This document shows, in pieces, positions 452-18,719 of a stretch of DNA of 55,690 bases. Both the position numbers and the translations under genes were made by a program. The stretch comes from Holosporales bacterium (lineage in GTDB: Bacteria; Pseudomonadota; Alphaproteobacteria; RUG11792), in the NCBI GenBank assembly GCA_031266385.1, contig JAISBC010000045.1:1-55690 (forward strand). Direction: 5' to 3'. Position 1 is the stretch's first letter. The number at the start of each line of letters is the position of its first letter. The notes beneath the pieces are model-generated. The model was not told the origin of the DNA. It saw only the letters and a program-made list of their open reading frames with translations, and did not search any database.

Positions 452-1825
452 TTAATTATCGAGGATTTCCTTTTGATCGCTGTGATCCAGGACAGATGAA
501 CCATAAGCTTGAGTAGTTTCATGTCCCTTGCCCATGACGACTACGTGATCCCCGGGAAGGGCCGTTCTAATCGAGAATTTAATTGCCTCTTTCCGGTCGC
601 CAATTTCGATAGCCTTCTTGCAGCTCAGCATTATTTCTTCGCGGATTGTGGCCGGATCTTCGGAGCGAGGATTATCGTCGGTAACCACTACGACGTCAGC
701 CAATCTTCCTGCTATTTCCCCCATTTCACGACGCTTGGTTTTATCGCGGTCTCCACCGCACCCAAAAACACAGATCAATTTGCCTTTGGATATGTTTTTG
801 AAGGCCGAAAGTGCCGCCTCGAAGGCAGACGATGTATGCGCATAATCGACGAATATTTTTATTCCATTCGTTTCCTTGATGAGCTCCATTCGACCTTGCA
901 GAGGGCGAATTTTACACATAGCTTCGATGATGTCATGAGGATCTAACCCGCTGCAGTATGCGATCCCAATCGAGCACATCAAGTTCATTAATTGAAATTC
1001 TCCGATCAATCCAACTTCGATATCTTTGAACTTAGTCCCATCTAATACCAAGTCGAAAGTTATACTACTAGCATTATTACGAATCTTCTCGATCGTAATA
1101 CAATTCTTTGAATTCATTCCAAACGAAATAATATTTTTATTATATTTGGTGACACCGTTGTAAACGTCGTCAAAATCTCGAGATACCACGGCCGGAGATT
1201 TTGGATCTAGGATTTCGCTGAATAATTTAAGTTTTGCCTTAAAATAACAATCCCTGGTCATATGATAATCGAGGTGATCAGATTCCAGGTTAGTAAACGC
1301 CGCGGCAGACAAAGAAACGCTATGAAGCCGTTTTTGCTGCAGGGCGTGACTCGAGGCCTCGAAAACAAAATGGTTCACTTCATATGATTTCAATTTTTCC
1401 AGGATTTGGTGGAGAGAAAATTGGTCTGGAGTCGTGAGATCCGGAATACAAATATCATCTAGGGTTTTCGTCAGATCATCATCGACAAAGAGCCCGACGG
1501 TCCCCAAGTTGGCGGCCTTCCTACCACTAGACGTCCAGAATTGCCGAACGAAATGAGCTACTGAGCTCTTTCCGTTCGTTCCCGTGATCGCCACGCAAAA
1601 TTCCGGTTGTTCACTGTGAATAAAGCGGGCCATCTTTGATGCCAGGAGCCTAGCATCTTCGATCCCAATTACCCCCTCCAAATTGGATGCCAATTTTTCG
1701 GCAAATATGAGTGATGCTCCATTTCTCTTTGCCTCTTCGATGTGGTCGGTAATTTTATTGCTCGAAATGGCGATAAATATGTCGCCCTTTTCCACATTCT
1801 TCGAATTTATCCTAACTTTTTTCAT
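452..1825 (-). CDS. murE: UDP-N-acetylmuramoyl-L-alanyl-D-glutamate--2,6-diaminopimelate ligase
   Basis: ORF 452..1939. Mur-ligase P-loop ITGTNGKSSV and the MurE-type C-terminal signature TDDNPRSEDP. Start placed at the internal ATG 1825 (MKKVRINSKNVEKGDIFIAI resembles the usual MurE N-terminus and removes the overlap with divergent waaA). 1939 is the longest-ORF alternative. Confidence 0.9.
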   Translation of the reverse strand: MKKVRINSKNVEKGDIFIAISSNKITDHIEEAKRNGASLIFAEKLASNLEGVIGIEDARLLASKMARFIHSEQPEFCVAITGTNGKSSVAHFVRQFWTSSGRKAANLGTVGLFVDDDLTKTLDDICIPDLTTPDQFSLHQILEKLKSYEVNHFVFEASSHALQQKRLHSVSLSAAAFTNLESDHLDYHMTRDCYFKAKLKLFSEILDPKSPAVVSRDFDDVYNGVTKYNKNIISFGMNSKNCITIEKIRNNASSITFDLVLDGTKFKDIEVGLIGEFQLMNLMCSIGIAYCSGLDPHDIIEAMCKIRPLQGRMELIKETNGIKIFVDYAHTSSAFEAALSAFKNISKGKLICVFGCGGDRDKTKRREMGEIAGRLADVVVVTDDNPRSEDPATIREEIMLSCKKAIEIGDRKEAIKFSIRTALPGDHVVVMGKGHETTQAYGSSVLDHSDQKEILDN

Positions 1826-6338: not shown

Positions 6339-6785
6339 ATGGTTTATGGCGTAAAAAACACACTCATCATATGCCTCACGATATTGGTGGCCTGCGTTCT
6401 GTTCATTTCGTATAACGAATACACCAACAGGTACGCTCTCGTTGTGACTCAGGATAATTCTTTATATATTTTTGACAAAAAGAGCACGGTTCTGAATAAA
6501 TGCTCAGACAAAGGATGCTCTGTGATCGAGACCAAATTACCTGCCAAAGTTTTCTTCCCGATATCATCCGACAATACTCCCAGCAGATTATTTGGATCCG
6601 AGAAGAGAATGGCCGATGATGTCGTGGAAGCTAAGGCAGAGAAGAAGGAGGATTCTGAGACCAAAACTGAAGGCGCCCAAGAGGAAAAAAAATCTCCAGG
6701 TGAAGAAACTAAAATCTCTGAATCTTCCACTGAAACTAACAAACCCGAGGAAAACAAGAAAGCTGAAGAGGAATTTGTCGAATAG
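6339..6785 (+). CDS. hypothetical membrane-anchored protein with acidic/lysine-rich tail
   Basis: 148-aa ORF. N-terminal TM (LIICLTILVACVLFISY) and a C-terminal low-complexity E/K/T tail (AEKKEDSETKTEGAQEEKKSPGEETK...). No family recognised. Confidence 0.45.
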   Translation: MVYGVKNTLIICLTILVACVLFISYNEYTNRYALVVTQDNSLYIFDKKSTVLNKCSDKGCSVIETKLPAKVFFPISSDNTPSRLFGSEKRMADDVVEAKAEKKEDSETKTEGAQEEKKSPGEETKISESSTETNKPEENKKAEEEFVE

Positions 6786-6814
6786 ATGAGATAGACGGTA
6801 TGAGCCGAGCTTTC

Positions 6815-6890
6815 TGGTGGGCGCCGCAGGATTCGAACCTGCGACCCACTGATTAAGAGTCAGTTGCTCTACCAACTGAGCTAGGCGCCC
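6815..6890 (-). tRNA. tRNA-Lys (anticodon CTT)
   Basis: Reverse complement reads GGGCGCCTAGCTCAGTTGGTAGAGCAACTGACTCTTAATCAGTGGGTCGCAGGTTCGAATCCTGCGGCGCCCACCA. Anticodon stem ACTGA/TCAGT, loop CTCTTAA, encoded CCA. Confidence 0.9.
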
Positions 6891-6925
6891 TCTTTTTTTG
6901 CTTCAAATTAACGAGACTAACTTCC

Positions 6926-7001
6926 TGGCATCTCCTACGGGATTTGAACCCGTGTTGCCGCCGTGAGAGGGCGGTGTCCTAGACCCCTAGACGAAGGAGA
7001 C
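6926..7001 (-). tRNA. tRNA-Glu (anticodon CTC)
   Basis: Reverse complement reads GTCTCCTTCGTCTAGGGGTCTAGGACACCGCCCTCTCACGGCGGCAACACGGGTTCAAATCCCGTAGGAGATGCCA. Anticodon stem CCGCC/GGCGG, loop CTCTCAC, G1-U72 wobble in the acceptor stem, encoded CCA. Confidence 0.85.
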
Positions 7002-7234
7002 AACCACAGCCGATCATTATGAATTAATCTCCTAACCAAGGCAAGACCAATGTTTTCGGCCTTTATTCGTTTCATAATTCTTGTATGCTTTTTTGAGAGT
7101 TTCCAGCCAAAGATAAATGAATCAGCACTCAACTATATTCTTTAGACCCCATCCCTACCCTTCCCCCTTTACTATTCTCTCCGTTTCTGTGCTTCGTGGC
7201 TCCTAGTAATAGGTCCGATTGTGGGAGTTTGTGT

Positions 7235-7250
7235 GGGTGGGGGGGGTGGG
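7235..7250 (+). other. G-quadruplex-capable run GGGTGGGGGGGGTGGG
   Basis: Four G3+ tracts separated by loops of 1-2 nt in the tRNA-Glu/tRNA-Pro spacer. A C-rich tract (ccccatccctacccttccccc, about 7147-7167) lies roughly 70 nt upstream on the same strand. Confidence 0.5.
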
Positions 7251-7384
7251 CTAGCCTGCTCCCGACTGCTAATCTATCGGCGCCCCTCTTATTTCTTAAT
7301 TTTCTAGTTGCACCTGTCGGGAATGGAATTTCAACTAAAATTCTAATGGCCTTATCTGGTCGTCTCATTTAGAATAGGAATTAT

Positions 7385-7462
7385 CGGGAAGTAGCGCAGC
7401 CTGGTCAGCGCACTATTCTGGGGGGATAGGGGTCGGCGGTTCGAATCCGCTCTTCCCGACCA
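7385..7462 (+). tRNA. tRNA-Pro (anticodon GGG)
   Basis: CGGGAAGTAGCGCAGCCTGGTCAGCGCACTATTCTGGGGGGATAGGGGTCGGCGGTTCGAATCCGCTCTTCCCGACCA. Anticodon stem CTATT/GATAG, loop CTGGGGG, encoded CCA. Confidence 0.9.
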
Positions 7463-7845
7463 ACATCTATATAGGTCCGTTACTGCTTATTTTGTGCTGG
7501 GGCTAAGGAAGATCGGGTGTTCTGGCCATGTTGTGTAAACTATCGGCCAGCTTGATGATTTGACAAAAACGGGTGTTTTCGCCCATTTTGCTCTACGAGG
7601 TACTTCTTCCCCGTCGGACTGCTCATTAAAAAAAACCGCTCCCTCAAATCATAAGATCTCGTCGCGTAAATTATAATACAGATAAATTACATTGCAGTAA
7701 GATGGGATGGGCCGCCACATTAACCCTCTCTAAAATTTGCTCTCCTCACCTTCTTAAGTCTTCTTCCAAATTGGTGGTTGATACGATTGGGATACACAAT
7801 TCTTTTTGATTGAGCAGGGAATCTCGGACTCTCCTACTCTTAAAC

Positions 7846-7965
7846 TTATGCGGCGCGGGTATCCGAGATGATCGTTGGAGGAGATGTTTTATGTACCACT
7901 TCCTTATCGATGATGACCTCGATAGCATCCGGTTTATCCGAGATATCGAACATCAGATCCGTCAG
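7846..7965 (-). pseudogene. clpX: displaced 3'-terminal fragment of clpX (39 codons plus stop)
   Basis: The minus strand reads [39 protein letters not shown]-stop, versus [39 protein letters not shown]-stop in the real clpX. An in-frame TGA at 7966-7968 sits exactly where the homology ends, so this is a fragment and not a gene. Confidence 0.8.
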
Positions 7966-8053
7966 TCAGAAGCTCGCTTATCCCCCAATCATATTTACTA
8001 ACAAGAATTCTGGAAAACCAGGGCTAAGTAGACTGGGGGGCTATGGACGCCTA

Positions 8054-8809
8054 TCAATCGTATTCCACTTCGTCTTTGATCTTTGTCCCAGTGGGGCGCT
8101 CCCGGGCTCCCCGGAATGCTATGCAGCTCTTGGTAATGACGGGATGTTGCCCTAGTTTCGGGGACAGTTGATCCACCTTGTTCGCGAAGTGTATCATTCC
8201 TCCTTCCGTTGCTTTGAGTAGCTGCCAAAATGTGATTTCCGATTCCGGATCGGCCTCTGCCAGGGCCTCTCGGAACATGCCGATGTTCACTATTATTGCC
8301 GCTGGGACCCCTTCTGCTGCTCCACACTCCCAATTCCCAAAAACTTCTACTGCCTTTGCCTTCACTTCATTCGTTGAAAGCTTGCTTCCTACTATTACCT
8401 CTTTGTTGAGTTGTTGGGCTGCTGCCCTGTAGGATGGGCGCGACCTATGGACTTTGTCTTTCTGTGTGGCTGCCAGGATTTGTGGATACTGGGTTGTATC
8501 CCGGTGTGGGTTTCCTTCCCAGTTTTCAAAGGCAAGATAGTCCCTTACCTGACAGAATGCTGGGCGGCCTGGGATTGGTGGTAGCGGCTCCATAACCTTT
8601 GGAGCAGGTTTCTTGGCCCTAGGTTGAACCCAGGGAGGCATTGGCATATAAGGCACGTAGTAATATGAGGATTCCTTTCTCTGTTGGTATTCAGCCGCCT
8701 GTATGTTGACCCGGGTGCATGGACTTACCATGATCACGGCGAGGAGGACTAAGTACCTCGTTTTGTGTCTAGGAGACCGGGGATGGGAAATGTGGCTGGG
8801 CTCATTCAT
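8054..8809 (-). CDS. hypothetical secreted protein (island cargo)
   Basis: 251-aa ORF. Signal-like N-terminus (RHKTRYLVLLAVIMVSPCTRVNIQA), Pro/Tyr-rich segment (YYYVPYMPMPPWVQPRAKKPAPKVMEPLPPIPGRP). Sense strand visibly C/A-rich, unlike the neighbours. No family recognised. Confidence 0.55.
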   Translation of the reverse strand: MNEPSHISHPRSPRHKTRYLVLLAVIMVSPCTRVNIQAAEYQQRKESSYYYVPYMPMPPWVQPRAKKPAPKVMEPLPPIPGRPAFCQVRDYLAFENWEGNPHRDTTQYPQILAATQKDKVHRSRPSYRAAAQQLNKEVIVGSKLSTNEVKAKAVEVFGNWECGAAEGVPAAIIVNIGMFREALAEADPESEITFWQLLKATEGGMIHFANKVDQLSPKLGQHPVITKSCIAFRGARERPTGTKIKDEVEYD

Positions 8810-8842
8810 TCTATTGGCCTCTATGTATATGCTATTTACTTC

Positions 8843-8871
8843 ATCTTATCACTTGCATACTGTTTAGTCAA
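8843..8871 (-). promoter_or_regulatory. sigma70-like promoter for ORF 8054-8809
   Basis: The minus strand reads TTGACT-N17-TAAGAT, ending about 30 nt upstream of the ATG at 8809. Confidence 0.4.
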
Positions 8872-9036
8872 CTTTTGGCCCTTCGGATTTATACCATTTC
8901 TCCACATTTTCTATTTATACATTTGTTGTGTACTCGTGAATCTATTTGTTGGGCCAAATACATCCACTGTCCCATTCTCTTGACCTCTCCCTGGGTTGTT
9001 GGGCTTCACGGGAGATCATCCATTCGTTCTGGGCCA

Positions 9037-10278
9037 TTACGCGGCGCGGTCATCAGTTATGATCGTTGGGGGAGATGTCTTGTTTACAACCTCCTTATCG
9101 ATGATGACCTCGGTAGCATCCGGGTTATCCGGGATATCGAACATCAGATCCGTCAGAAGATCCTCAACAATCGATCTCAGCCCCCTGGCTCCAGTTTTCT
9201 TCTCGATGGCCTGCCGGACGACCTCCTTCATCGCATCCTCCTTGAACGTCAACGTTACGTCGTTCATGTCGAATAGACTCGCGTACTGCTTTAATATCGC
9301 ATCCTTCGGCTCGGTCAGCACCCTCAACAAATCATCTTCCTTCAGGTCTTCGAGTGTCGCCACAACCGGTAATCTCCCAACGAATTCTGGGATAAGCCCA
9401 AATTTCAACAGATCTTCCGTTTCGATTTCTTTGAACAGCTCCCCTACCCTTCTATCCTCGGATTTCTCAACGTCGGCTCCAAATCCTATGCCGCTCTTCT
9501 TCCCGCGAGCGGCTATGATCTTCTCGAGACCGCAGAATGCCCCGCCGCAAATGAACAAAATATTCGTCGTGTCGATATGCAAAAAATCCTGTTGAGGATG
9601 TTTGCGCCCTCCCTGCGGCGGGACGAAGGCGACCGTCCCTTCGATCACCTTTAATAGGGCCTGCTGAACTCCCTCCCCCGATACATCTCGGGTAATCGAT
9701 GGATTCTCAGATTTTCTCGTTATTTTATCGACTTCGTCGATATATACTATGCCACGCTGCGCCTTTTCGACGTCATAATCGGCCACCTGTAACAGGTTCA
9801 GGATGATGTTCTCGACATCCTCTCCGACGTATCCGGCCTCTGTCAGAGATGTAGCATCGGCCATCGCGAATGGAACGTCTATACATTTCGCCAGCGTCCT
9901 GGCCAACAGAGTCTTGCCCGATCCCGTCGGCCCAACGAGCAGGACATTCGATTTCGCGATATTTACATCCGGATATTTGTTGGATTTACGCTCCAATCTT
10001 TTATAATGATTATAAACCGCGACCGATAAAGTTCTCTTCGCCTTCTCTTGCCCGATGACGTGTTCATTCAATTTTTTGAATATCTCAGATGGAGTCAGAA
10101 AGCTACCGTCATCGGCCCCAGCAGCCGCCGATTCTTTTTTGATCACATCTGAGCAAAGAGATATGCATTCATCGCAAATGAAGGCCGTTACGCCAGCTAT
10201 TAACTTCTTAACCTCGTTCTGAGACTTCCCGCAAAACGAGCAAAACAGGACTTCATCTTTCGCTGAGTTAACGGACAT
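9037..10278 (-). CDS. clpX: ATP-dependent Clp protease ATP-binding subunit ClpX
   Basis: N-terminal zinc finger [17 protein letters not shown]...ICDECI, Walker [12 protein letters not shown], Walker [19 protein letters not shown] sensor motif. Confidence 0.97.
9041..9156. repeat. direct repeat copy B (functional clpX 3' end), partner of 7850-7965
   Basis: See the island feature. The longest identical block, GATATCGAACATCAGATCCGTCAG (9133-9156 = 7942-7965), lies at the gene-proximal edge, where a crossover core would be expected. Confidence 0.8.
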
Positions 10279-10349: not shown

Positions 10350-10955
10350 TTAACACGATTCTGTTTGCCTCCTCTCGATAATCTGATCGATGAGACCAAA
10401 TTTCACGGCATCCTCAGCCGACAAGAACTTATCTCGCTCCATGGCCGAATTGATTACCTCGATATCCTGGCCAGTATTCGCCGCATAAATAGCGTTGAGT
10501 TTTTCTCTCAGACTTAATATTTCTCTGGCATGAATCTCGATGTCGGTCGCCTGACCGCGAGCCCCACCAGACGGCTGATGAATCATGATCCTTGAATTAG
10601 GAAGCGAGAACCTTTTCCCCTTCGCCCCAGAACACAGCAAAAGCGACCCCGCCGAACAGGCTTGTCCAATACAGAGTGTAGAAACATCACATTTGATATA
10701 GTTCATGGTATCTAAAATCGACAGGGCGGAACTTACAACTCCTCCCGGGGAGTTTATATAAAAATTGATATCCAGAGTCGAATTTTCCGATTCGAGAAAT
10801 AACAACTGGGCACATACGATCGACGCAACATCATCATCGATACCACCCGTTAGGAATACGATCCTCTCCTTCAGGAGCCTCGAATATATATCGTAGGATC
10901 TCTCTCCTCGACTCGTCTGTTCGACAACAATTGGAACAAAACCAGACATCCACAT
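10350..10955 (-). CDS. clpP: ATP-dependent Clp protease proteolytic subunit
   Basis: [29 protein letters not shown] (active-site Ser region), IMIHQPSGG (His). Classic tig-clpP-clpX order. Confidence 0.95.
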
Positions 10956-10967
10956 AATCTCCCTAAA

Positions 10968-12320
10968 TTAATCCTCAGCACCGACCGGTAGATCCTTTAT
11001 ATCATCTTCTCCTTCGAGTAAATTTTCTCTAAGCTCGTTGACTTCGTCGATGGTTTTCTCGACATCCGTCGTTTTTGCCTGAGACATCAGGAAGTCTATA
11101 ACCTTCCTCTCGATAATCTCAGCTTTTTTGTAGGCAACGGCATTAGGGTTTTTCATATAAAAATCCGTTATCTCTCGAGCTTGATACGGAGATCTTCTAA
11201 TCTCTTCCATGACGGCTCCCTGCAAATCAGCCTGGGAAACGACGATATTGTTCTCCTTTGCAACTTTATTCAAAACATATCCCAAAATGACACGTTTTTT
11301 AATGATATCGGCATACTCGGCCGCAAGCTCCTCATCGGATTCCAATTCCTGTTTCTGCCCGGTTCTTTCCTCTTCCTCGGCCGCATCCGCCTTAATCTCA
11401 GCCAACAAATTTTTCGTCTCATAATCGAAAATACTCTGCGGTACATCAAAATCATACTGATCACTTAGATACTCAAGAATCTGACTCTTATGATACAAAA
11501 ACGCCGTATCAATTATGACATACTCCAGAGACTGCCTTATCTTGGATTCGAAATCGGCGAGATCTTTGACCCCCTTCCGATCGGCGATTTCTTCGGTAGA
11601 CAGCCCAGTAACTGGACATCTGATGGATCTTATCGTAAATTTATATTTTAGATTGATCTGATCACTAGTCACGAAATCGAAACTTTCTCCAGCCTTTTTA
11701 CCGAGAAAATTATTGAAAAAATCGGCACTTTCCCCAAATTCTTCAGGAATCAATAGCTTATTTTGAAAGCTCTTTTTTTTGCTCTCTACACCATCGTTGT
11801 AACATTTTGCGACATATGTAACCTCATCTCCATGCTGTATCTCGTGATCTTTTTGGGCTTTCTCGAGGATTGGAACTAACCTCAGATAACCATCTCGCGC
11901 CTCTTTCACATCATCGTCCGAAACTTTCGGAATGACCCTGGTTACCTCGCACTCGAATGGTTTCAACTCAAATGACGGAGCGATTTCGACGGCAATTACG
12001 ATCGAAACATCCTTTCCCGGTTCATAATTATTTTCGAAACGATAAGCAGGAGTAGTCGCGATCTCGGTCGCAGCAAGCCGTTTTACACATTCATCACAAG
12101 CCCTAGAAATCAATGCATCGAAGGCATCCTTAACGACACTTCCACCGACGCTATTCCTGACGATATCGAGCGGAACATGCCCAGGCCTGAATCCGTGCAT
12201 CCGAAAGGTTTTTGCCTTCTCTTCGACGCACTTAGTTATCTCATCCTCTATCTCCTGCGATTCAAAAATTACCCTAACTTCATGCCGCAGCTTATCGGAA
12301 ACAACGTTCTCGAAAATCAT
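10968..12320 (-). CDS. tig: trigger factor
   Basis: 450-aa ORF directly upstream of clpP. N-terminal ribosome-binding region GFRPGHVP, central PPIase-like region and C-terminal arm. Conserved gene order. Confidence 0.9.
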   Translation of the reverse strand: MIFENVVSDKLRHEVRVIFESQEIEDEITKCVEEKAKTFRMHGFRPGHVPLDIVRNSVGGSVVKDAFDALISRACDECVKRLAATEIATTPAYRFENNYEPGKDVSIVIAVEIAPSFELKPFECEVTRVIPKVSDDDVKEARDGYLRLVPILEKAQKDHEIQHGDEVTYVAKCYNDGVESKKKSFQNKLLIPEEFGESADFFNNFLGKKAGESFDFVTSDQINLKYKFTIRSIRCPVTGLSTEEIADRKGVKDLADFESKIRQSLEYVIIDTAFLYHKSQILEYLSDQYDFDVPQSIFDYETKNLLAEIKADAAEEEERTGQKQELESDEELAAEYADIIKKRVILGYVLNKVAKENNIVVSQADLQGAVMEEIRRSPYQAREITDFYMKNPNAVAYKKAEIIERKVIDFLMSQAKTTDVEKTIDEVNELRENLLEGEDDIKDLPVGAED

Positions 12321-18026: not shown

Positions 18027-18719
18027 TTACTCACCTCTTTCCATAAGTTTTTTTTCTTCTGTATATTCAATCCCAACGAAAACGACACGCCTTTCTTTAC
18101 AGAAAGCTTCGACGTGCTGAATATTTCTAATGCTATCATCTATGAAAATAATTTTCGACGGATGACAACTAGCGTAACCTAAAAAGGCCTTCAAGCTGTC
18201 ATCCTTACGAGTTCTGCCGCAACAAATGACTCCCTGATCATATGCGCTGTCTGGCTGATTATTTGGCATAGGTAGCCAACAATTTTCCAACGATGGAAAC
18301 GATTTTTCGAAATGATACCCAAGAGATTTCAACGTTTCAATTCTCCATTTTATTGGATTCTGTAATTTCTTGGAAGCCTTCGCTGACAAGGCCGTAAGAA
18401 CAACTGTTTTTATTTCTCTTTGCTGCAGTTCATCCACCAATTGCGGCATTTTTTTATTGACGAGAATAGTCTGCCGATTTGATTTTGCCCGATCCCAAGA
18501 AATAGTGGTCAAAACGCCATCGCAATCGAATACGACGAGAGTATTCTCGTCGGCTCTTTCAAATTCTGCCTCAATATCTTCTATTTTATCGGTGGTGATG
18601 ATTTTTGTGTCTGGATGGTTTTGATTCTGTTCTTGAGTTTGCTTCTTTTCTGCGCCGTCTTCTGTGCAGCCGCACAATAGAAACAAAATCGCAAATAAAC
18701 TAATAAGCTTCGATCTCAT
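18027..18719 (-). CDS. lipoprotein with HAD-like DxDxV motif
   Basis: Lipobox LFLLCGC, then LVVFDCDGVLTT (HAD motif I). Its stop abuts the trmL start at 18026/18027. Confidence 0.5.
   Translation of the reverse strand: MRSKLISLFAILFLLCGCTEDGAEKKQTQEQNQNHPDTKIITTDKIEDIEAEFERADENTLVVFDCDGVLTTISWDRAKSNRQTILVNKKMPQLVDELQQREIKTVVLTALSAKASKKLQNPIKWRIETLKSLGYHFEKSFPSLENCWLPMPNNQPDSAYDQGVICCGRTRKDDSLKAFLGYASCHPSKIIFIDDSIRNIQHVEAFCKERRVVFVGIEYTEEKKLMERGE

Follow-up and report, generated by a model that had tools for sequence, protein, structure and literature searches.

Why does the end of a housekeeping gene appear twice on one contig, with a single gene lying between the two copies? The question is raised by clpX in a 55,690-nucleotide (nt) stretch from a Holosporales bacterium (GenBank assembly GCA_031266385.1), the full stretch of contig JAISBC010000045.1, which is here called the window and whose numbering is used for all coordinates given without a contig name. 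A first-pass annotation had described a duplication of the clpX 3' end bracketing a one-gene insertion, and this duplication was recovered exactly as claimed, with 102 of 116 positions identical between 7850-7965 and 9041-9156. Taken to its full length, the repeat is direct and ungapped and covers 120 nt at a spacing of 1191 nt, with 105/120 positions identical (87.5%; 88% in the repeat search) and a BLAST E value of 7e-38 between the copies, far beyond chance. Copy A forms the working clpX terminus and copy B lies apart from the gene (Table 1); as had been read on the first pass, copy B still translates to a ClpX-like 39-codon tail with its own TAA, and an in-frame TGA sits directly before it. 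Judged by alignment and translation, copy A is shown to keep clpX intact and copy B to be a non-functional fragment. The comparisons described below further show that a 1,071-nt accessory cassette was inserted at the clpX 3' end in one lineage, with a terminus of the gene left on both sides. The favoured account of how this happened remains tentative, with a rough probability of 45%: the cargo, together with a homologous clpX-tail anchor from a related lineage, would have entered by a RecA-type single crossover (Campbell-like).

Identity between copies A and B is complete (24/24) across the first sense nucleotides, which form the longest exact block, and the remaining 15 differences increase toward the stop codon, with 2, 6 and 7 in successive 40-nt thirds. 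Both the position of this block at the gene-proximal edge and the rise in divergence had been pointed out in the first-pass annotation. The block could be a crossover core, but it coincides with the best-conserved stretch of the ClpX tail (LTDLMFDI), and conservation alone could account for it. No homology was detected outside the 120-nt repeat, the 200-nt flanks aligning no better than shuffled sequence in local alignments, and the stop codon and codon -39 are therefore the two limits of the homology between A and B. A tandem segmental duplication was ruled out on the same grounds, as the similarity of 7646-7845 to 8837-9036 was no better than that of shuffled controls. BLAST found exactly two copies of the clpX-tail repeat in the 862-kb genome, a copy number that rules out a dispersed repeat, including the dispersed family unrelated to clpX that had been entertained as an objection on the first pass. 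The genome is a metagenome-assembled one of 861,805 bp in 68 contigs (92% complete, estimated contamination 0.03%), and its contig ends share overlaps of exactly 119 nt that are 100% identical; compared with such overlaps, copies A and B are only 87.5% identical and share no exact block longer than 24 nt, so that an origin of the repeat as an assembly artefact is unlikely.

Comparison with relatives supports an insertion specific to this lineage. The open reading frame (ORF) between the repeats, here ORF251, had no match in the genomes of 40 relatives. DNA matching the clpX tail was found in two of five congeneric genomes, in one copy each, and the other three gave no DNA match; a second clpX tail was absent from the fetched clpX downstream regions of all five. 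With duplication and cargo both missing from the congeners examined, the converse possibility, that relatives share the duplication and that the ORF is a core gene, was not borne out. The gene downstream of clpX in three congeners encodes a fast-evolving signal-peptide protein of 335-376 amino acids (aa), with HU after it, and in the two with a longer fetched stretch tRNA-Val, a DsbD-like gene (dsbD) and lspA come next. These ancestral clpX neighbours are intact in the present genome as well, but on another contig, C66, where the 359 nt upstream of the first of them contain no clpX tail. The suggestion that clpX would otherwise adjoin the tRNA-Pro region did not hold, since in relatives only tRNA-Pro itself is conserved, and it is sited elsewhere. 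Measured by ClpX, the closest named relative, a "Holosporales bacterium" metagenome-assembled genome, shares 74% identity.

The clpX locus is not alone in its architecture. In a genome self-comparison, 8.5% of bases fell in repeats, among them many low-copy pairs, and several of these pairs share one layout: an intact housekeeping-gene end, one accessory gene and a fragment copy of the gene end 0.66-1.14 kb away (Table 1). Cargo and host gene point the same way in 6/6 cases, and every homologous proS 5' and ruvB 3' region detected in congeners is single-copy. Counted from the stop codon, the outer repeat boundary falls between -57 and +135 nt across the cases, so that the exact coincidence with the stop codon at clpX is not a rule. 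On this genome-wide comparison, the clpX duplication is shown to be one instance of a recurrent repeat-cargo-repeat structure affecting at least five other genes.

The topology at clpX recalls that of e14, a prophage of 15 kb that encodes an integrase of its own and is excised site-specifically upon SOS induction. In the arrangement icd / e14 / icdC of Escherichia coli K-12, the housekeeping gene is kept intact by an insert-supplied, slightly diverged 3' end, the other terminus is a short C-terminal pseudogene, and recombination between the termini would restore a single chimeric gene (PMC13626634). As at icd, clpX is intact and a near-copy of its terminus lies on the far side of the insert. 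A site-specific element of the e14/icd type would have supplied a clpX-like replacement terminus, integrated by means of an integrase at a core inside clpX and since been reduced to one cargo gene; besides the shared topology (PMC13626634), such an origin would fit the homology whose limits coincide exactly with the stop codon and the 24-nt identical block, the allele-like divergence of the copies and the absence of the insertion from the congener clpX loci examined. However, the insert measures merely 1.07 kb, holds one orphan gene and contains no integrase, recombinase or other mobile-element gene, the missing integrase having already been remarked on the first pass (the sole ORF of the insert has no Pfam match). 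Only a single tyrosine recombinase (PF00589, Xer-like, on contig C68) was found in the whole 92%-complete genome, in which no rve transposase was detected. The displaced terminus is, moreover, detached from the ancestral downstream genes on C66, and no fewer than five further loci show the structure, each with an unrelated repeat of its own and some of them at 5' ends or in a promoter region; with so many different targets, a dedicated integrase per site is implausible. Of the e14/icd-style scar that had been proposed, the order of intact gene, cargo and displaced terminus therefore stands, but the absent integrase, the non-ancestral flank of copy B and the many unrelated sites make an e14-type element improbable.

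Elsewhere in the genome, an intact group II intron reverse transcriptase/maturase of 441 aa is encoded at C45:169-1494 on the minus strand (TIGR04416, 332 bits with a cut-off of 300), and it is the genome's only reverse transcriptase. A diversity-generating retroelement as the source of the differences between copies A and B was ruled out, as an A is present in either copy at only 4-5 of the 15 differing sites and the reverse transcriptase is a group II maturase on another contig.

The differences between the copies bear on where the two termini diverged. Third codon positions account for 48 of the 77 coding differences pooled over the six pairs (9/15 for clpX alone), a share that departs from the ~0.42 expected under neutral in-place decay of one copy (binomial p = 2.6e-4, with n=77 and an assumed expectation). 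In the proS pair, 25 of 101 non-coding positions differ as compared with 14 of 166 coding positions, a contrast of ~3x. At clpX, copies A and B are equally far from outgroups, with 88/120 identical positions for both in one (G001) and 87/120 for both in another (G004), the third giving 76 and 79 of 120. The third-position excess, the non-coding/coding contrast in proS and the equal outgroup distances are compatible with divergence as working alleles and suggest that the fragments diverged mostly as parts of working genes, in different lineages. When the changes at clpX are polarised by the congeners, those derived in A are nearly all synonymous and those derived in B mostly non-synonymous (P>S, N>H, D>T), a pattern that, on the few sites offered by 39 codons, fits a live copy A beside a dead copy B.

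Allele-like divergence would also be expected of an old whole-gene or segmental clpX paralogue that was deleted down to 39 codons, or of an assembly or binning chimera of two strains, the latter being conceivable in a 68-contig metagenome-assembled genome. Both are very doubtful: the lack of homology beyond 120 nt speaks against either, a genome of 0.86 Mb is unlikely to retain long-lived duplicates of at least six housekeeping genes, and a chimera is at odds with the low contamination estimate and with the siting of both copies within a single contig of 55.7 kb, where each copy has unique sequence on either side and the longest exact match is 24 nt compared with the 119-nt overlap.

Further information comes from the junction of the insert with copy B, which is abutted by a truncated relic of a multigene family (Table 1). 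The relic at 7985-8040 matches more than 25 family copies over 30-53 nt at 77-93% identity (BLAST), and it lacks the family promoter, ribosome-binding site and ATG. The family, termed poly-G here, has ~40 copies in the genome. Its members consist of a conserved promoter/ribosome-binding region of ~170 nt, an ATG with the leader MKIFNKFANKNVGKPGLTRRW, a G tract of 10-16, a hydrophobic segment, a hypervariable body of 190-360 aa (GR..A..G.P.P and GYW motifs), a C-terminal transmembrane helix and a basic ...KLKGL tail. As assembled, no more than about one copy in four reads in frame from its ATG, and copies are often in tandem and often at contig ends (e.g. C14:32424 and 33244, C56:270 and 1098, C27:15591, C10:3541). 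With the family profile, 32 loci were matched in this genome and a single one in the nearest congener, and 39 other genomes from the taxonomic family gave no match; no copy of the 5' DNA module was found in congeners, and the leader DNA had no match in congeners or in species-representative genomes, the latter covered by a 23-mer scan. By these counts the family is a very recent, lineage-specific expansion, and its make-up resembles that of a repertoire of phase-variable surface proteins.

The presence of this family's shortened leader at the insert/copy-B junction points to recombination among repeats. The same junction carries a 7-nt microhomology, CTTCTGA, with a 4-nt duplication of CTGA. 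These features would suit an origin of the cassette in situ, by a duplicative insertion through template switching or illegitimate recombination during replication or repair, in which the cargo would have been copied or moved in, a return switch would have re-copied 120 nt and copy B would have decayed since; foreign DNA would not be required. The mostly non-synonymous changes derived in copy B, beside synonymous ones in copy A, also suit such a dead copy next to a live one. The repeat-rich background of the genome, with its many family copies sharing a conserved 5' module, is favourable to such events, and the expansion of the family in one lineage alone (32/1/0 profile matches) implies an internal copy-and-paste process. 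On the other hand, the third-position excess (48/77) and the equal distances of A and B from the outgroups are a poor fit to neutral decay after a local duplication, and no second or donor copy of ORF251 was found elsewhere in the genome. An in-situ origin is the main rival to the single crossover, possible on this evidence if less likely.

The cargo itself was scrutinised for its status as a gene. As reported on the first pass, the ORF at 8054-8809 and a TTGACT-N17-TAAGAT site are both present between the repeats. ORF251 is an orphan: it had no Pfam match, a word search of 5.8 billion proteins returned it alone, and phmmer against 1.84 billion representatives gave low-complexity Pro-rich matches only. 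A single-sequence AlphaFold2 (AF2) model was uninformative (mean predicted local distance difference test score, pLDDT, 44.7). The plus strand of the insert is T/G-rich, of family-like composition, and includes the clear leader relic, all of which points toward a decayed poly-G family gene on that strand with ORF251 as a chance antisense frame. This candidate was rejected, as the family hidden Markov model found no body in the insert; after the relic, no family-like protein body was recognised (hmmsearch E >= 0.086). Under a codon model trained on the same genome's long genes, the ORF251 frame scored 0.095 bits per codon compared with <=0.012 for the other five frames, poly-G family genes averaging 0.082, and its G content was 0.325 at codon position 1 as compared with 0.163 at position 2. 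The open frame extends over 263 codons, whereas antisense frames in 30 poly-G family genes reach <=144 codons. The lack of a family body in any frame, this difference in length and the codon periodicity are the reasons for which ORF251 is retained as likely to be a real gene, and its product, with a signal-peptide-like N-terminus, is probably exported. An A+C-rich sense composition is common to ORF251 and two other secreted orphans of the window. A 95-codon open frame at 7868-8155 on the plus strand runs from the antisense of copy B through the leader relic into a hydrophobic stretch and is probably a chance fusion frame made by the junction.

The favoured explanation, integration by a single crossover, can be set out as follows. 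The donor DNA would have consisted of the cargo and an anchor, a short homologous copy of the clpX tail. Its probable source would be a related lineage or population variant with the cargo already sitting directly after the clpX stop codon, and the piece would probably have been circularised before integration. A RecA-dependent single crossover inside the anchor would then have integrated it, with no need of a dedicated integrase, and would automatically have left two direct anchor copies around the cargo. The sharp ends of the repeat would have simple meanings, the stop codon marking the end of the donor homology and the start of the cargo, and codon -39 the end of the donor fragment. The outcome would have the topology of e14 at icd, with a replacement and a displaced terminus, but the joining would be by host homologous recombination. 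Pieces made of anchor plus cargo could also integrate via the ~170-nt 5' module of the family, which would strand gene-end fragments on contigs with family genes, away from their parent genes; the murE-like tail on C20 and the DUF2608 tail on C16 are fragments of that kind, family genes being present on C20. Such a Campbell-type model accounts for the direct duplication, the sharp ends, the allele-like differences and the stranded gene-end fragments. The clpX locus has two direct copies with sharp ends and no flank homology, and RecA (on C12) and RuvB (on C2) are present in the genome.

Several observations weigh against integration from a related lineage. No donor lineage, circular form or empty site was found in public collections, ORF251 was absent from all other public proteins and contigs searched, and a metagenome contig collection, searched by exact 24-mer and by the ClpX C-terminus, held nothing closer than 57% identity. 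VirB4 was not found in the genome and no conjugation machinery was detected. The third-position bias rests on n=77 and an assumed neutral expectation, and a mutation spectrum favouring third positions would weaken it. Finally, copy B is not followed by the ancestral neighbours of clpX, so that at least one further rearrangement must be assumed.

Integration of circular DNA by the Campbell route, as in the insertion duplications made with suicide plasmids, is RecA-dependent and leaves the target gene intact if the homologous segment reaches the gene end. The clpX locus is similar in having two direct copies of a segment around the insert and sharp homology ends. The route is familiar chiefly from laboratory use and from the integration of plasmids and episomes, whereas the clpX case would represent a natural and repeated path for accessory genes in a reduced symbiont genome. 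The relics of the poly-G family can be compared with those of the p44/msp2 surface-antigen families of Anaplasmataceae, in which recombination likewise leaves truncated copies and fragments; p44/msp2 works, however, by gene conversion into an expression site, whereas the poly-G family has a poly-G tract in the leader and scattered separate cassettes, and the relics in the present genome, unlike those of p44/msp2, include pieces of housekeeping genes.

It is tempting, although speculative and on balance unlikely, to extend the single-crossover explanation to a general means by which the symbiont spreads host-interaction genes (the poly-G family, an ankyrin-repeat protein and secreted orphans) within its genome or between co-resident lineages, without an integrase, as anchor cassettes. 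Homologous recombination would drop each cassette beside an essential gene in the same orientation, where it could borrow the promoter or transcript of that gene, and the duplicated gene end would be the footprint of the event. Taken alone, the clpX duplication is a small scar in the genome of an uncultured symbiont, and its value lies in the wider pattern of a 0.86-Mb, apparently integrase-poor genome in which accessory and surface-protein genes repeatedly lie beside essential genes between duplicated gene ends that look like diverged working alleles. If this pattern holds, reduced host-associated genomes could acquire and shuffle host-interaction genes by homologous recombination alone, and the succession of gene-end repeat, cargo and gene-end repeat would be a simple footprint for finding such events in other genomes. 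For annotators, short "pseudogene" tails beside intact genes may mark an insertion and not gene decay.

The flank beyond copy B is also peculiar to this lineage. The spacer that separates copy B from tRNA-Pro has no counterpart in congeners, and on the far side of that tRNA lie fragments of two dispersed repeats (Table 1), so that the whole of 7001-9036 can be read as a lineage-specific mosaic. The fragment at 7142-7243 has at least 25 copies and contains a G-rich tract of its own, and that at 7090-7134 often recurs ~80-130 nt from contig ends elsewhere; on the genome comparison, the two together point out a second break in synteny, located between tRNA-Glu and tRNA-Pro. An Rfam scan of 6700-9300 returned three tRNAs and nothing else.

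Table 1. Features of the clpX region in the window and loci with the same repeat-cargo-repeat layout. Positions with a C prefix are on other contigs of the genome.
Feature	Position	Strand	Basis or remarks
clpX, intact, 413 aa	9037..10278	-	ORF list; Pfam zf-C4_ClpX, AAA_2, ClpB_D2-small; 82-93% aa identity to congener ClpX
clpP	10350-10955	-	upstream of clpX
tig	10968-12320	-	upstream of clpX
Repeat copy A, working clpX terminus (last 39 codons + TAA)	9037..9156	-	repeat search, alignment
Repeat copy B, orphan clpX tail (39 codons + TAA), no start codon, in-frame TGA directly upstream	7846..7965	-	repeat search, alignment, translation
Lineage-specific insert between the copies, 1,071 nt	7966..9036	.	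apart from the leader relic 7985-8040, no homologue in genome or relatives searched
Cargo ORF (ORF251), 251 aa, co-oriented with clpX; signal-peptide-like N-terminus, Pro/Tyr-rich segment; orphan	8054..8809	-	ORF list, homology searches
Promoter-like TTGACT-17-TAAGAT with upstream TG, for cargo ORF	8843..8871	-	sequence inspection
AGAGG, Shine-Dalgarno-like, 8 nt before ATG at 8809	8822-8818	-	sequence inspection
5'-truncated relic of poly-G family leader (...FTNKNSGKPGLSRLGG..., G tract down to 6), abuts copy B	7985..8040	+	BLAST to >25 family copies; frame +2 translation
Unique spacer between copy B and tRNA-Pro, 383 nt, no ORF	7463..7845	.	no homologue in genome or congeners; not ancestral clpX flank
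tRNA-Pro(GGG)	7385..7462	+	gene 97-99% conserved in congeners, where its context differs and its flanks are unrelated
Fragments of two further dispersed repeats	7090..7243	.	genome comparison
Layout at clpX 3' end			repeat 120 nt, 87.5%; cargo ORF251
Layout at proS 5' end + ~100 nt upstream	C27:15127-16569		repeat 267 nt, 85%; cargo poly-G family gene
Layout at trkH 5' end	C10:2650-3959		repeat 112 nt, 87.5%; cargo poly-G family gene
Layout at major facilitator superfamily (MFS) transporter 5' end	C6:1970-3452		repeat 172 nt, 96.5%; cargo ankyrin-repeat gene
Layout at rpsL upstream region	C58:18777-19648		repeat 108 nt, 83%; cargo 170-aa signal-peptide orphan
Layout at ruvB 3' end	C2:10367-11846		repeat 182 nt, 94.5%; cargo family-like 258-aa gene

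Other sequences of the window also have second copies in the genome. The tRNA-Lys/tRNA-Glu pair at 6814-7051 recurs with 95% identity at C10:4052-4291, where it adjoins a bracketed family cassette. The tail of a murE-like ligase gene (452-1939) has, for window positions 476-568, an 86% copy at C20:9761-9853, on a contig that also holds family genes, and the tail of a gene for a DUF2608 protein (18027-18719) has, for window positions 18046-18309, an 84% copy at C16:17062-17326.

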